A stretch of DNA of 63,783 nucleotides, filler included, from Vannella sp. (lineage: Eukaryota), in assembly GCA_023345925.1 (NCBI GenBank). It is 6 parts of 6 records of this genome, joined end to end, with 100 filler letters (N's around TTAATTAATTAA, not from the genome) between each part and the next. Parts side by side here need not be neighbours in the genome. Positions count along the whole stretch, not along the records: positions 8,550 to 16,927 come from JAJQQN010001002.1; 5 more parts are not named here. One strand, 5' to 3'. The notes under the pieces are model-generated. The model saw nothing but the letters and a program-made list of their open reading frames with translations. It was not told where the DNA came from and did no database searches. The position numbers were made by a program, and so were the translations under genes. Shown piece after piece: positions 8,450 to 56,086 of the stretch; positions within the stretch are counted from its first letter, which is position 1; every line of letters begins with the position of its first letter.

Positions 8450-8549
8450 NNNNNNNNNNNNNNNNNNNNNNNNNNNNNNNNNNNNNNNNNNNNTTAATTA
8501 ATTAANNNNNNNNNNNNNNNNNNNNNNNNNNNNNNNNNNNNNNNNNNNN
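8450..8549. other. Artificial contig linker (N44-TTAATTAATTAA-N44)
   Basis: Identical 100-nt spacer with stops in all six frames, repeated five times in the window. Confidence 0.98.
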
Positions 8550-13506: not shown

Positions 13507-14240
13507 TCAAGAAGTCATCTCCCCGAAATGCTGTGATCCGAGGAAGGTGAGAAGAGGAGGAGAGGTTGGACTACCAATGAAGCATTTCCCCAGCTGCCAA
13601 TAGTCACCCAGTACCCAGCCTTCTTGGATCTGACAAGTCAAAACTTGGTGGCCTGCCGTCTCCGAGTTGCTTTCCACTTGACAAACCATTTGAGCAACGC
13701 ATTCTCGTATAGCTATCACGTTAGACTTGATCTGGAGTGGCTTCCAACCGGGCTTGAAGACAGTAAGAACTCAATGAAGTCTCCGACGGAGCCATTTGGC
13801 CTCACCTCGCACAAGTGGAAGCTGGAAGGGAACTTCTCTGCTACAACACGAAGTTTTGAAACGCTTTCAGAGCCGTGGAAGGACCCAATGAAGAGAATAA
13901 GCTCCTCCATTCCCTTCACGGGAACATTCAATACTGTGCGAGGACTTCTTAGCCTCCTTTTCCCCCTTTGCATGAGCCAGACTCACCAAATGTTCGGTTC
14001 TTCTGCAGCTGCTTCCACGAGAAGCGCCCGTTTTGCATCGAACAGACGAACTTTCCCTTCAGCAGAACATTAACGAAGCGATACCTTATGGGGCACCATT
14101 ACCTGATTGTTCAGACATGCCAACCAAGAGATTGACATCACATTGGCAGTTGTATTCGTCTTCGTGGTGAGGAGACAAACGGGATTAGCGTACAACAGAC
14201 GGCTGAGCAAATGCTTCGGTACCGCAATCACCTCTCCCAT
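13507..14240 (-). CDS. Flavin reductase-like (DIM6/NTAB, FMN-binding split barrel) protein, multi-exon
   Basis: SRLLYANPVCLLTT..NVMSISWL, LNVPVKGMEELIL.IGS.HG, CVAQMVCQV..GHQVLTCQI. Confidence 0.75.
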
Positions 14241-14368
14241 GCCGCCCAAGAAATGGAGTTTAATTGTTGAAAAGAATGCAGCTGAATACTTGGTTAAAGA
14301 AACGAACGAGACAACCTTCTCAAGGAGCTTTTTGGCGATGAGAGAAGTCACGTGAGGGATTTTAACGG

Positions 14369-14593
14369 GAAATGGGCTTCCAATCTCCCAAGTTTCGGTA
14401 ATTGGCCTCTGATGAGGGAACGTCCTACAAAAAATGAACCCTGATTTAGAGGCACTTGCCAACGTGGGTGAATTCTCTCAACCCTCATCCCCTCTTTGCG
14501 AAGGGGAAGAGAGGGGCAGAACTCGTGTTTGCGTAGCTTGCCCTGATGACCTCCATCTCATCAGGATAAGCTTATGGACCCATTTCATTTTTT
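14369..14593 (+). ncRNA. Candidate ~220-nt four-way-junction structured RNA, family unknown
   Basis: Terminal stem 14369-14382/14575-14586 encloses three abutting hairpins (14397-14460, 14461-14529, 14535-14572) with many G-U pairs on the + strand, followed by T6 at 14588-14593. Confidence 0.65.
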
Positions 14594-14876
14594 CACTTCT
14601 TGGATGTTTGAGGACCCAAAGAGCATGGACCGGGAGTCAGATTCAATAGTATTGGCATCAAAATATGATCCTGGTTTCCAAAATCGCGCTGTTGGCTGAA
14701 CGCGCATTAACGCTGTTAAGCCTCGACAATCAAGTATACGCCTTCGATACATGAGATCTGGTACACTCGATTATTTAACTGTAGAAAGCGCTGTTTTGTG
14801 AATCTAATTTCTCCTTGATGGTGGAGCGAAGGGATACCAAATCGTTCATGTTTTTATTGATTAGCTACGATAATGT

Positions 14877-16927
14877 TTATACTTGATTTGTTGGTCCAAT
14901 GAGTTCGAGCAAGTATGCCAGTTCTTCTTTTCTGTGCTGCATGAGCCTCTGTTGGAGGAGAAAGTGATCAGCAGTCTTTGTGAGAATCATTTGACTCTCG
15001 TCCACGTCCACTCTCACCGAAAAGGCTGGATCCAACTGACAATCACCGAAATCGAAGTGAAACTGGCAGGTGCAACGCACTTGCCACTTGAGTTCGCCGA
15101 GGAATTGAGAAGAGCTATCATTGAATGGGCCGTTGATACAAAGACTCGCCTCTTGACTTCTCAAGAAATCCTGGATTTTTGGATCCTTGGAAGAAGCAAA
15201 GGGATAGATTCCATCGAACTGCCTTCCTTCCGATGCCACAATGTGCTCGAGTTTCATAATTCGGTCCTGCACTGCCAGCTTCACAATCATGCTCTTTACA
15301 GCTCCGTCACGAAGGTTCTCCAAGACCCAAATAAGCAATTTGTGCTTCTCTCTTTCATCTAGAGGAGGAATGTGTTTGTTTGACAATTCAACAAGAAGCC
15401 CGAGTTCGTTATCATTACATTTGCACATGAAATGCACAATCTGGCCTAAGGGGAGATTTGGAGTCCCAATCTCGGCACTTGCGATGTATCGGGCCATGAT
15501 TCTGGGAACACCCTCCTCTATCATCGATGGGTGCGCGGCAATTAAAGATGGAACAGGATTTTTGGCAAATATTCGTGAAGATTTCCCTCGGAGAAGATCC
15601 AAAATAAGCTCCATTTTAGAAGATGGGATGTCTCCCAGCACTCCCTCAAGAATGCTCCAAGGAAGATCCTTCAGGAGCTGGAACTGAACTCTGCAGAACC
15701 TCTTGGAAGGTGGCCCAACTCTTAGTTCTGTCACAATCTTGGACATACGGAACCTCATCGAAAGTGGAGTGTCGGGTCTGAGCAAACGAGTGATGAGATC
15801 GGATGTTCCTCCGAATCCCCAACACTTATGAATTGCAGCAGATTGAAGCCACCTCTCCTGGAGCTCCAACTCATCGTAATCGGGGATTTCCTTGGCAAAC
15901 CGGTTCAACCACAGAGGGTAATACAGGGATGCATAGATGAAGCCTTCCCTGGTCTTGGTAGAGTGTGCGTTCCAAGCAGCCAGAATGGCAGAGGCTGACC
16001 CTTGAAGCAGTCGGAAAACGATTGCAATCCTTTGTTTTCTGTCACTGTGGAATCTGGACACTTTCGAGAGTACTTTTGGATCATCTGGTCCCAACTCCAG
16101 GACCAACCTTGTCAAGACTGACAAATCATCTTTACGGCTGTAAACCACTTCTGGCAACGAGCTGGCCCTAAAGACGAAGATTGCGGTTGCCCATTCTGTA
16201 GCGAAAGTGTCGCTTTCCAACTTTTCCTCTTCTTCATTTTCGTGAAAGTTGAAGCTCGTTCCGGTCTCCACCTCGAAAGAGAATCCAAGAGGATCAAAGC
16301 AGGGCCCTTGGTCAGTCGCAAACCACTGAGAGACAGAGTTGCTGATGATCTTTCTTCCTTCCGACCAGGTTCGACCCTTGGAATCAGTGAGCCGATCGAA
16401 ATCTCCGAAGAAGACTCGGATCTTTGCACCTTCAGAAAGGTATTGGTTGCACTCATTGAGTCGCTTGATCATTGCCGCATTTTCTCTATCGAATTCTGGA
16501 CAGCCAGGACGGAGGAACATGCCCATCCAGCTAGAAGAACGAGAAGGAAGTGTAAACACTGGGTTGCTGCTCTCCCACTTCTCAAAGATCTCAGCGAGCT
16601 CTTCGGCTGGCTTGCAGCAACGATTTGGAGGTGGCTTGTCATCCACATACATCCAATCCAAGTCAAAGACCAGAAAAATGCGTTCTCCTGAGCTCAGTTC
16701 CTCGAAACGAACTTCTGATTTCGTGTAAACTAGAATAATGCCGCAGTAAAACGGGTTCTTGTCATGGTCAAAGGTTAGCACATGGTCATCTCCACCAACA
16801 CTGATGGTGATTGCCCCATCGGTAAAGTTAGAAGGCAGAAGAACGAGCAAGCGGAGAAAGGCGTCTCGTTCGGGTAACGGGAGGGTCACCTTTCTCCCTG
16901 GCATGTCGAGGATGAGTGCTTGGAGTA
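14877..16927 (-). CDS. 5'-partial protein with a degenerate 2OG-Fe(II) oxygenase-like N-terminal domain
   Basis: LLVLLPSNFTDGAITI..ILVYTKSEVRFEELSSGERIFLVFDL aligns by eye with the LvvxLPsxhxGG..HEvxpvxsGxRxvLvY pattern. Long ORF open to the gap. Confidence 0.55.
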
Positions 16928-17027
16928 NNNNNNNNNNNNNNNNNNNNNNNNNNNNNNNNNNNNNNNNNNNNTTAATTAATTAANNNNNNNNNNNNNNNNN
17001 NNNNNNNNNNNNNNNNNNNNNNNNNNN
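16928..17027. other. Artificial contig linker
   Basis: N44-TTAATTAATTAA-N44. Confidence 0.98.
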
Positions 17028-29594: not shown

Positions 29595-30086
29595 TCAACA
29601 CTTTTTTGGGCAATTTGGAAAGAGCCATTCATCAGAGCCTCCGCAACAGTCTTCCTCCTTTTGTTAGACTCATTTTTCACGATTTGTGCACTACTTACCA
29701 CAAACCCCATCATTGACAAAGCTGCTGGGAATGGAGCGACCTGAAGAGTCGCTGCATTGGAAGGTGCTGGGGAATCGCTCTCGATGAGCACATGCATTCG
29801 TTCCAGGCTCATCAGAACCATCAGGGCAGTCACAGTAGTCATCGTTCGAGTACTCCAGCTCGAAGAACAGCGGAGGGTCGGACACACACCGAAAGTGAGT
29901 GTCGTTCATCCACACGCTACTGGGTGACAAAGCCCACACAGAAGGAGGGCGAACAGTCTCAAAGACTTCCGGTAGCCTGGCAAGAAGGCTGCGCGTGGCT
30001 GCCGCATCCACACGGGGGCGATTGAGAAACAAAAAGGCGCCGAGCACGATCAGCCACCAGACCAGCACACAGGCACTCTTCGCCAT
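29595..30086 (-). CDS. Short glucosidase II beta subunit (PRKCSH)-like protein, Cys-rich N-terminal domain only; one intron near 29653-29698
   Basis: Signal/TM segment, NDDYCDCPDGSDEPGTNAC, SSFVNDGVC|DCCGGSDE, then a stop codon. Confidence 0.75.
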
Positions 30087-30362
30087 ACAGCTAGTCTTCT
30101 GACCTCCCTTCAACCCCTTTCGGCTCTTCTGTACTGGCAAGCCATCCTCCCGAGGGATCAAACGGACCCCCCCAACACGGTGCCTCGCCGAAGAGATCAT
30201 AAAAATGATGCATTAACAGTCAAACGATCAGAAAATCAAGCAAAACTTCGAAATAAACCACGAGAGAGTCGAAAGAGTGCTCCAGAAAGTGCGAACCAAT
30301 TCCTGCATTTTCTGGGAGCATCTCTTTCGATTCTTTTGTGTTCTCTCATTTCTTTGTTGCCT

Positions 30363-31433
30363 ATGCCTTTTGGATACCATACGGTGCTTCTTAGTGACGA
30401 TGGATTGTTGGCGTTTGGAGGTAAGTCAACATTTGATGGTGAAGAAGAGATGCCATCTACTCCCCATCTGGTCCCTTGGACGGGGCCACCTTTGCAGAAT
30501 GTTGACTGGGGCCGTTACCACTCACTCGTTCTCGATAGTGAAGGGACAGTCTGGGAGGCGGGAACTCCTGGGGCCGGAAACTTTGATTTCACTTCCAATT
30601 TTCGGCGTGTTCCAGACCTTCCCGTCATTGTCCACATCTCTGCTGGATACAATCATTCAACAGCTGTTGATGTAGATGGAGGTCTCTGGCTGTGGTCCGA
30701 GTGGCAAGTTGCTTCTGATCCTGGGATTTCCACCCCAAAGCTGATTCCCGGCCTCCCGGCGATCTCCAAAGTGGCATGCGGATGGAACAATCTAGTTGCA
30801 GAAGCAGTAGATAACTCCATCTGGTATGTTGGACTAGATTCAAGTGACCTCATCAAGGCTTATCCGCTTGAAGTGAAAGACCGTTCCATTGGACCTCTTC
30901 GAAGCTTCACCCTTCTCTTCAGTCATCTTGTTATGGTTGATTCCGAAGGTTCTGTGTTTTTTGCGACCGAGAAAGACAAGATCTATAGATCGGATTCCAT
31001 CAGAAAGTTATCCAAACTCCCTCCAATGGTGAAGGTATCTGGCGGAAGCCACGGATTGTTGGCATTGGATGAGCAAAGTCAATTGTGGAGGTGCAATCAA
31101 ATAACGCTCTACAAAGCTCCTGACATTACTGAATGGCTGAAAGAGGTCAGATCCTTTGTGTCAGGAGGCTACCATTTCATGGCGCATTTGCTGGACGGCA
31201 CTACTATGGTCGTTGGGAACAACCAATACGGGCAGTTTGGTCCAGGTTGCTCAATCGGGTATCACAGTACTCCTTTCCTCTGTGCATTCCACGAAGCATC
31301 TCCGACGAGAAAAAAGAGTGCCCGTTCTGTGGCTGATCTTTCCTTCGCCACAGGTAAGCGTTCGATTCACCCAGCGTCAGAAGAGAGCATGCCTCTAAAA
31401 AAGAGAGAGAGACAAAGGTCCCCATCCACTTAG
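30363..31433 (+). CDS. RCC1/BLIP-II beta-propeller repeat protein
   Basis: GRYHSLVLDSEGTVW, ISAGYNHSTAVDVDGGLW, GGYHFMA..GNNQYGQFG. Confidence 0.85.
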   Translation: MPFGYHTVLLSDDGLLAFGGKSTFDGEEEMPSTPHLVPWTGPPLQNVDWGRYHSLVLDSEGTVWEAGTPGAGNFDFTSNFRRVPDLPVIVHISAGYNHSTAVDVDGGLWLWSEWQVASDPGISTPKLIPGLPAISKVACGWNNLVAEAVDNSIWYVGLDSSDLIKAYPLEVKDRSIGPLRSFTLLFSHLVMVDSEGSVFFATEKDKIYRSDSIRKLSKLPPMVKVSGGSHGLLALDEQSQLWRCNQITLYKAPDITEWLKEVRSFVSGGYHFMAHLLDGTTMVVGNNQYGQFGPGCSIGYHSTPFLCAFHEASPTRKKSARSVADLSFATGKRSIHPASEESMPLKKRERQRSPST

Positions 31434-31877: not shown

Positions 31878-31977
31878 NNNNNNNNNNNNNNNNNNNNNNN
31901 NNNNNNNNNNNNNNNNNNNNNTTAATTAATTAANNNNNNNNNNNNNNNNNNNNNNNNNNNNNNNNNNNNNNNNNNNN
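31878..31977. other. Artificial contig linker
   Basis: N44-TTAATTAATTAA-N44. Confidence 0.98.
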
Positions 31978-42534: not shown

Positions 42535-43029
42535 TCAAGTGCCCCAACCTTGATCATGCACCAACAAGTTGGCCTTTGTTTTTAGGAGAATGTGTGGGAG
42601 TGGGTTGATTGGTCGTGTGGTTGAGTCCGAGTTCTCCGAAGCTATTTGCTCCAAAGACCAGCAGGCCGCCTTCCTCTGAGAACACCAAAGAATGGTCCCT
42701 CCTGCAACCAGAGCGCTCACTCTGTTCAACGAAGACATCAGACCGGGTCGAAGCAGATTGAAAGGTTTGCCCGTCCCCAATTGCCCAGATTCACCGCATC
42801 CCCATGACCAGACACCGCCGGTCTCATTCAGAGAGAGGGACTGACCGTTTCCGCAGGAAGCCGCCAGCATGGGAGGGATGTTCACAATTCGCTGAAGCTT
42901 CGAAAAGACACCAGAAGAGCGCCCCAGTTGGCCATGGGAGTTGATCCCAGTCGAGAAGACGCCTCCTTGCGAGTCAATGAGGATCATTCCTTCGCAGAAG
43001 GCAGCCACATCTAAGTGGTCCTTCTCCAT
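42535..43029 (-). pseudogene. Truncated, frameshifted RCC1-repeat gene
   Basis: GINSHGQLG and SWGCGESGQLG repeats. Near 42697 the RCC1 repeat DHSLVFSEEGGLLVFGANSFGELG continues only in another frame. Confidence 0.65.
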
Positions 43030-43203
43030 TATATCACTGAATCGCTCCTTGTTTTACAAGCAAATAGTGGCACCGCAATGAAGCTACTGTAACCGCATAC
43101 AGTGGATAAAGAACTCTTTCAACAGGTGTTTTGGAAGAAGGAAAGCTTGATTGCGGTTTCAGAAGATTTTTACTGCCTTTTTTGAGAAAGTGGTTGAAAT
43201 GCA

Positions 43204-44860
43204 TCAAGGGCACGATACGGATTTGATCTTGATCCTTCCTGTCCCATCCATTCTAGTGAGTGGCCGGAAGAGGGGATTTGAGGGGAACTTACGAATTAGA
43301 TTAGCTTTACGGTGCAATCGCCAACGAATGCGCATTTCAATCACTAATCCACAGATAGCAACCAGCAGGATAGCTCCTATCACCATTCCTAGGGAAATCC
43401 ACGCCAGACTAGGACTATCTTGGTTGTTGGACTGGCAAGAGTCCGCTCCTTTTCCTGTCAAGAGAAGGACAAAGTTCGTGAGATGGACTGTTTGACCACA
43501 CAGAAGGTCGCCTTCCACACTAGTCCCCTCATTGGTGCCGTTACCTTTGGCAGGGAAAGTGGTGAGGCACTCGTCTTCACACGTCCATTTGTCTTTGCGC
43601 TCGTCGTAAAAGCTCAGGCACACGCTCTCTCCCTTCTTTGTCGTGTTGGGAAGGGTCAAACAGATAGTCAGTGGCGAGTCCAATTGGGTGATGGAGTTGC
43701 CTTGGCCGTCCAAAAGTGTGATGTTCAGGACAGTGCTGGCCAGCACTTGCTCGTTAGAAGAATTGCCTATGGGACTGCCAATGTAGGAAGTGACCAAAGT
43801 GGTGTTGGCTTCGTTGCTCAAGTTGGGAGGGACAAAGAGGGCTCCCACTGGATCCTCACCTGGAGAGCTGGAGAGCTCCACAAACTCGCCAGAAGTGAAG
43901 TTGGAGGGAAAGATAATTGCAGCAATCAAAGAAGGACTGATGGAGGAGAAGGAAGTGGCAGAGGAAGTGATGGATGGTGACTCGCTCTCAAGAGTGCTTG
44001 GCAATCCTGATTGATTTGGACTTTGGAAAACTTCACTTAAAAAGTACGATTCGGTTGCGAGTGGGGAAGTACTGGGTGCCTCACTAACGAAAGGTGAAGA
44101 GGTTTCAGAAGAAGTGAAACTTGATGAACTGGGTGTCCCTTGTGCACTGAAAGAGGACGATGTAGAGACAGAGCTCGTTTCACTACCACTGGAAGAGGGT
44201 GTTGATGAAGCAGTAGGGATCGTACTTGAAGAGGAAGAACTTGAAACACTCGCACTGCCACTCGAAGATGGCGTTGCTGAACTAGTAAGGCTCGTGCTGA
44301 GAGAAGGAGAGCTTGAAACGCTCCCACTGCCACTCAAAGAGGGTGTTGTTGAAGCAGAGGGACTTGGACTGAGCGAGGGAGTACCAGAGTTGCTGCCACT
44401 CCAAGAGGGTGTTGAAGAAGCAGAACTGCTTGTGCTGAGGGAAGGAGAGCTTGACACGCTTCCACTGCTGCTAGGAGAGGACGTTGCGGACACACTCTCA
44501 CTGCCGCTTGGAGAGGCCGTGGCACTGCAGGAGGGGGTAACTGATCTACTGGCGCTGGAAGAGGGCGTCTCTGAGGAAGTGAGACTTGCGCTGGAAGAAG
44601 AAGAGCTTGATGCACTCGTACTACCACTTGGAGAGGTAGAAGGGCTTGCACTTAGAGAAGGAGAGCCTGATACGCTCGCACTACCACTTGGAGAGGCAGA
44701 AGGGCTTGCACTTAGAGAAGAAGAGCTTGATACGCTCGCACTACCACTTGGAGAGGTAGAAGGGCTTGCACTTAGAGAAGGAGAGCTTGATACGCTCGCA
44801 CTACCACTGGGAGAGGTAGAAGGGCTTGTGCTGGGAGAAGGGGAGCTTGATGCACTCGTA
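43204..44860 (-). CDS. 5'-partial cell-surface protein: Ser-rich 20-aa repeats, GAIN/GPS-like domain, single TM, short cytoplasmic tail
   Basis: C.SFYD..W.C..C..CGQTVHLTNFVLLL is a GPS motif, followed by the TM segment WISLGMVIGAILLVAICGLVI. Confidence 0.8.
44160..44860 (-). repeat. 60-bp tandem repeat encoding a Ser-rich stalk (near-perfect 44590-44860, degenerate below)
   Basis: The unit GAGAGCTTGATACGCTCGCACTACCACTTGGAGAGGTAGAAGGGCTTGCACTTAGAGAAG recurs with period 60 up to the contig end. Confidence 0.9.
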
Positions 44861-44960
44861 NNNNNNNNNNNNNNNNNNNNNNNNNNNNNNNNNNNNNNNN
44901 NNNNTTAATTAATTAANNNNNNNNNNNNNNNNNNNNNNNNNNNNNNNNNNNNNNNNNNNN
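44861..44960. other. Artificial contig linker
   Basis: N44-TTAATTAATTAA-N44. Confidence 0.98.
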
Positions 44961-55986: not shown

Positions 55987-56086
55987 NNNNNNNNNNNNNN
56001 NNNNNNNNNNNNNNNNNNNNNNNNNNNNNNTTAATTAATTAANNNNNNNNNNNNNNNNNNNNNNNNNNNNNNNNNNNNNNNNNNNN
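55987..56086. other. Artificial contig linker
   Basis: N44-TTAATTAATTAA-N44. Confidence 0.98.

Follow-up and report, generated by a model that had tools for sequence, protein, structure and literature searches.

A structured non-coding element in an intergenic gap of the amoeba Vannella sp., likely one copy of an undescribed multi-copy family

The DNA that we analysed, here called the window, is a stretch of 63,783 nt from Vannella sp. and consists of six contig pieces chained by N-TTAATTAATTAA-N linkers at 8450-8549, 16928-17027, 31878-31977, 44861-44960 and 55987-56086. Because these linkers join separate pieces, ORFs that span them are artefacts. The genes of the window are eukaryotic (class I PI3K, Zn2Cys6, SET and RCC1 repeats); the PI3K had no relative above 45% among the 120 matches listed, and a Rab-GDI exon, on a different piece from the element studied here, was 86% identical to a cluster that includes a protein of Vannella robusta, and its identity to one of Clydonella was 72%, which makes a vannellid host likely, provided that all pieces derive from one organism. 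Two RCC1-repeat genes (29976-31433 and 42535-43053, one recognised by Pfam and one by eye) perhaps represent an expanded family. A hairpin of ~35 pairs, G-U pairs included, with a loop of 10-12 nt (30259-30343, + strand; z of -5.7 for a 225-nt window) ends about 20 nt before the likely ATG (30363) of an RCC1-repeat gene, and from its predicted fold looks like a pre-miRNA or a 5' UTR hairpin. On the - strand, 43204-44904 encodes a repeat protein rich in Ser and Thr, for which Pfam gave no match; it has a cysteine region next to the membrane and probably a single transmembrane helix. No tRNA or tmRNA was found in the window.

The element occupies 14369-14593 of the contig piece 8550-16927 (JAJQQN010001002.1), in an intergenic gap of 630 nt flanked by two - strand genes. 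It stands head to head with a small gene (ATG at 14240) and behind the stop (14877) of a 700-codon ORF. Pfam gave no match for either neighbour, including the small gene, which looked flavin-reductase-like; a neighbouring gene apparently uses a GTAATG donor. Stops occur in all six frames over 14340-14660, and the stretch has no coding potential. A palindromic TCACGTG(A) word (14347-14355, without strand), present at three places in the window, is located 14-21 nt upstream of the element and may have a promoter role.

The first-pass annotation had described this stretch as a four-way-junction RNA with an oligo-T terminator, and its sequences and coordinates were correct. On the + strand, the 5' strand of a closing helix (14369-14382) pairs with 14575-14586 at pair probabilities of 0.72-1.0, and encloses helix A (14397-14460; 0.36-1.0), helix B (14461-14529) and helix C (14535-14572; 14 of 15 positions paired, 0.81-1.0). 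The helices had been said to have almost no spacers, which overlooks a 14-nt linker (14383-14396) between the closing helix and helix A. For helix B the apical part is well supported (0.74-0.99), whereas its 9-bp base has a probability of 0.0 in the single sequence: the minimum free energy (MFE) fold instead pairs 14384-14394 with 14461-14471 and makes a hairpin at 14516-14532, and forcing the base costs 7.5 kcal/mol. Hence, because the helix B base lies outside the single-sequence ensemble, the four-way junction is just one of two folds, while the closing helix, helix A and helix C are well supported. An A and six T (14587-14593) directly follow the closing helix and form a candidate Pol III terminator or an internal U-rich strand; termination there is unproven, as a predicted hairpin (14597-14636, -8.8 kcal/mol), possibly part of the unit, and the similarity of relatives, which align into it, continue beyond. 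The A-rich loop of helix A (14429-14438) is a perfect 10-nt complement of 14584-14593, both strands being kept in relatives, and this pairing would rival the closing helix; we do not count it as evidence because it is weak (-6.0 kcal/mol) and another perfect 11-nt pair exists within the same kilobase.

The fold is real. The 225-nt stretch has an MFE of -89.2 kcal/mol on the + strand with a z-score of -5.64, and 0 of 200 shuffles were as low. As background, 129 non-overlapping windows of the same length were each compared with 20 shuffles, after exclusion of those with N's or overlaps; only one fell below -4 and three below -3, a comparison affected by the fact that the target ends were chosen to fit and the background ends were not. 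The reverse strand gave a z of -4.08, and folding with DNA parameters gave -3.81, weaker than the RNA fold. Energies and z-scores thus modestly prefer the + strand. The frequency of G-U pairs, from which the + strand had previously been argued, cannot pick a strand, with 5 of 73 pairs in the + MFE fold and 8 of 71 in the - fold.

Sequence related to the element was found in five public DNA runs (X1-X5) of three studies of biofilm and freshwater; vannellids are common amoebae of both. At 80% likeness, the contigs matching 13700-15300 numbered 107 in X1, 197 in X3, 3 in X4 and 5 in X5, and those over 14560 numbered 39, 49, 2 and 2, respectively. The latter belong to a conserved block C (about 14500-14620), and some reach 14614-14620, past the T-run. 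Gene DNA flanking the element occurs in the runs at a depth of about 2-8 with few differences, which indicates that the organism or a close strain is present in them. Contigs 82-87% identical to 14907-14985 and 15211-15289 of the 700-codon ORF were also seen, and this similarity suggests that X1 and X3 may hold paralogs of it or related amoebae. Summed depth over 14510-14600 was in the thousands in X1 and X3 and 3-6 in X4 and X5; such a sum is no copy number and may stem from another organism, and the contrast would fit a repeat that amplifies or the presence of a second organism.

The contigs of block C have unlike loose ends on both sides, so several loci must be involved. On 14300-14508, eight of nine contigs matched only 14396-14445, a conserved block A, over 38-50 nt with 2-6 differences, and seven of these eight alignments start at 14396, two bases before a GT that resembles a splice donor (14398). 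Block A contigs have a common 30-nt upstream sequence unlike that of the window and continue into four distinct downstream sequences, thus block A is an island of conservation. One of these downstream loose ends is similar to the ones that precede block C in its contigs, which connects both blocks to one family; a single contig with both blocks was not seen among the contigs examined, and loose ends reach 30 letters only, the findings on them being among those listed. Behind 14433, a loose end in X3 carries a word near the Pol III B box that was not seen in other relatives. The window segment 14447-14508 had no cover in X1-X3, a hole that proves nothing. One X1 contig joins 14534 to 14590 with six other letters between and would be a relative without helix C, weakly so as its short side has 22 letters. 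Exact-pattern scans of JGI metagenomes gave 0 matches in one scan and 8 loci in another, the latter judged to be chance because none was like the element outside the pattern; those of GTDB gave 0 in both scans and those of IMG/VR 0, 0, 14 (chance), 0 and 0, and blastn returned one weak match in phages (E 0.9) and none in plasmids. Judged from these comparisons, the stretch probably represents a diverged copy within a multi-copy family not yet described.

The relatives also bear on the helices. Directly before 14500 they read CACGAGT (among the loose ends listed), the exact complement of 14521-14527, in at least four X1 contigs at an agreement of 1.0 and also in X3 and X4. The window's strand differs from this word at three of seven positions, and all three still pair as G-U. 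This complementarity, together with changes that keep pairing, indicates that the helix B base (14463-14469 with 14521-14527) is likely real, a support that comes from the relatives only; the three changes are, however, all transitions, the commonest mutation, and one relative reads GTCCCGAG where others have CACGAG, which would break one base pair. The window would then have about 30 extra bases inside helix B. In helix C, which contains a CTGATGA word at 14543-14549, no variants of at least 5% were listed at 14542-14559. A14560T, in all covering contigs, gives a U-U mismatch; C14537A and T14538G, which make up 14-18% of the depth in X1 and X3 and are present in both X5 contigs, break two pairs; C14541T adds one, and no compensatory change was among the listed variants. 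For the closing helix, the window's letters at 14580-14581 are not those of ~98% of the relatives' depth, and two pairs would break there, so this helix holds only if their unseen 5' strand co-varies. At 2-3 of the 12 positions of its 3' arm the relatives have other letters, reading CTGA or GTGA at 14579-14582, and its 5' arm is unlike theirs. The T-run is kept in relatives, with one extra T in one X5 contig.

Block A contains, beside the A-rich loop, another CTGATGA word (14409-14415), so that each conserved block holds one such motif; the word occurs 21 times over both strands of the window. Read against the K-turn definition in PMC5499572, helix A has a putative K-turn at 14405-14412 and 14449-14453, with U-A in place of U-U and C at bulge position 2. 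In one relative the loose end CTGAGGC keeps the GAGGC strand with CT before it, and would pair with block A into a canonical C/D K-turn, provided that the block A positions are unchanged there; the other relatives' loose ends after block A, among those listed, are without the GAGGC strand. Compared with the box C consensus RUGAUGA, UGAUGA occurs twice, each time after C rather than a purine. A terminal D box with a U-U K-turn was not seen: helix A of the element carries TAGA, its 3' end reads CCCA, and CTGA is found in relatives only.

In our tentative reading, the stretch belongs, as a diverged copy, to an undescribed family of small, structured, multi-copy RNAs, the product of which could be a scaffold likely binding a box C (K-turn) protein. 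The + strand would be transcribed into a multi-branched RNA of 225-270 nt, presumably terminated by Pol III at the U-run. Its two conserved box C-like motifs (CUGAUGA) may bind a K-turn protein of the Snu13/15.5K kind, with the K-turn placed in helix A, and the RNP scaffold may work like a box C/D (U3-type) RNA, a class to which its own assignment is putative; conserved single-stranded stretches (the A-rich loop and 14519-14534) would be free for target pairing. Because the window copy is without the D-like CUGA and the relatives' upstream segment, it may be either a variant or a member in decay. Against this reading, no Pol III A or B box was found in the window copy, and similarity extends past the T-run. 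The earlier suggestion of a new structured RNA, perhaps a Pol III product, remains the best reading. A wider form of this reading strikes us as unlikely: a new amoebozoan class of C-box RNP scaffolds of 225-270 nt, at once functional RNA and self-amplifying, with genes that would multiply by the hundred in only some vannellid populations; among unicellular discosean amoebae it would be the first RNA class specific to a lineage.

The same relatives could instead descend from a non-autonomous mobile repeat, SINE-like or MITE-like, that was amplified in some populations, with a fold that serves mobilisation and an old diverged copy at this locus. We regard this main rival as somewhat unlikely. 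Many related contigs with unlike flanks, the sharp 5' edge at 14396, the extension of similarity beyond the T-run and the X1 contig that skips 14535-14589 would all suit such a repeat, as would a summed depth over 14510-14600 that is very high in X1 and X3, compared with 2-8 for neighbouring gene DNA, but not in X4 and X5; this between-sample difference is explained better by a mobile repeat than by an RNA gene, although the two are not exclusive. The first-pass annotation had named many dispersed copies with target-site duplications as one case against an RNA. Many relatives do exist, but no direct repeat of at least 7 nt was found between the tested flanks, where 1.9 are expected by chance, in a test to which short duplications are indistinguishable and for which the true element ends are uncertain. 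Moreover, the window copy has no A or B box and no poly(A) tail, the terminal arms are the least conserved part, contrary to MITE inverted repeats, there is no second copy within the 63.8-kb window, and folding is weaker as DNA than as RNA.

Readings as a known RNA are, taken jointly, also somewhat unlikely. Rfam 15 covariance models gave 0 matches at the gathering level in the window, and on four sub-ranges with E up to 10 the best scores of 12-15 bits were noise. Relics of 5.8S or LSU rRNA, 5S, SECIS, U2, U4, an HDV-like ribozyme and vault RNA were dropped after Rfam scans without a match, and a hammerhead ribozyme or retrozyme was dropped as CUGANGA, stem II and GAAA were not found.

A U3-related processing snoRNA or a derivative of one, with C' at 14409, a B-like box at 14466, C at 14543 and D in the relatives' CTGA at 14579, appears improbable. 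The length is near that of U3, about 220 nt, and the multi-copy U3 genes of Euglena described in PMC2784804 are a precedent for many copies. By eye, CTGATGACC equals the Dictyostelium box C line at eight of nine letters in the alignment of PMC2784804, and GAGTGTCCTGATGA, a variant found in a minority, is similar to the B and C boxes that adjoin each other in trypanosomatids there. However, of the U3 boxes only the two C boxes are present as such: B occurs only with a mismatch (no exact box B on the + strand), there is no GGATC box A, and D is in relatives alone, the window reading CCCA at that position. C' and B lie about 57 nt apart, whereas the 17 U3 RNAs aligned in PMC2784804 have about 20-30 nt between them. 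The relatives' upstream loose end reads GGACAT, and the 5' GAC, A' and A boxes of U3 were not seen; nor was there an Rfam match to U3.

An enlarged U11- or U1-like snRNA is quite improbable. The closing helix, three arms, U-run and then a hairpin follow the U1/U11 layout of cloverleaf, U-rich strand and 3' hairpin, and the first-pass annotation had suggested such a cloverleaf, but that suggestion fails on the 5' arm and the Sm site. U1 carries an ACTTAC arm, U11 an AAAGG arm, and the Sm site is RAU4-6GR; neither arm is present, the closing helix takes up the 5' end at a pair probability of 1.0, and CATTTTTTCA is no Sm consensus, of which none exists on the + strand of 14300-14700. Rfam again gave no match. 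Amoebae including Acanthamoeba retain parts of the minor spliceosome according to PMC10639083, in favour of a U11; yet the window showed no recognisable U12-type donor on a sense strand (1 match in all).

A spliced-leader-type RNA with a variable 5' exon, a donor CG|GTAATT at 14397/14398, a conserved intron part and high-copy arrays seems very improbable. In its favour, seven of eight block A alignments start two bases before GT, the neighbouring gene apparently uses a similar donor, and the high depth would suit arrays. Against it, known spliced-leader RNAs are shorter than the element, the Sm consensus is absent, the putative exon differs between window and relatives, and no sign of trans-splicing was seen within the window.

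For an RNA derived or permuted from RNase MRP the chance is slight. GAGAG at 14509 and an A-rich loop like that of P3 agree with it, but GAGAG is paired in a helix and forms no pentaloop (GARAR). One relative's loose end with GAAAAGTCCC comes near the 5'P4 consensus of PMC1796607, but other relatives read GAAAATCCAC in its place, and against the consensus as given there the window is without 5'P4 within 2 mismatches, without 3'P4 within 3 on the + strand and without CR-IV.

That the stretch is the telomerase RNA (TR) of the host amoeba is the least probable of all. A closing stem and T-run are as in plant-type TRs (PMC12133305), and no amoebozoan TR was described in the literature examined. 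The two C-rich words with 7-nt periodicity on which the proposal had rested do exist, but at least two period-7 matches occur in 222 of 276 windows of 225 nt, i.e. at chance level, and among relatives the first word varies and the second is replaced by other sequence. The stretch contains no 7-mer of (CCCTAA)n, a template tested for the TTAGGG repeat of Acanthamoeba (PMC11995660), which may not be the host's. The many copies, and the fact that no order of template then pseudoknot was seen, further oppose a TR.

The element is hence a real, undescribed structured element of a multi-copy family, and is most probably neither a telomerase RNA nor a U1/U11; its function we infer. It probably does not supply the missing amoebozoan telomerase RNA. 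No paper on vannellid non-coding RNAs, nor any description of such an RNA, was found in a search that covered mostly papers outside subscription. If the family is one of RNAs, it would be a multi-copy structured family outside Rfam and a counterpart to the Class I RNAs once thought special to social amoebae; if it is a mobile repeat, it would be a new element family with large between-sample differences. The two conserved blocks are ready probes.

Compared with known systems, the element resembles SINEs and MITEs in being short, structured, present in many copies with unlike flanks and variable in abundance by sample, and differs from them as neither A/B boxes nor a tail were found in it, and no target-site duplication or conserved terminal inverted repeats were seen. 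From U1 and U11 it differs by its many copies, by a length about twice that usual for them and by the absence of a free 5' splice-site arm. With U3 snoRNA, as far as PMC2784804 and PMC5499572 describe it, it shares two UGAUGA boxes, to which relatives add a D-like CUGA close to the 3' end, and it differs in being without a GAC, A' or A box, in its other box spacing and in the loss of D from the window copy. The Class I RNAs of dictyostelids are 42-65 nt long with an 11-nt motif and a DUSE, and, according to PMC7919456, were not found outside Dictyostelia; they are a precedent for lineage-specific multi-copy amoeba RNAs with a closing stem and a T-run. Like them, the element has an amoebozoan host, many copies, a short stem joining the 5' and 3' ends, a conserved block amid variable sequence and a T-run downstream, whereas with 225 nt or more it is four times longer than the RNAs of PMC7919456, is multi-branched and carries C-box words.
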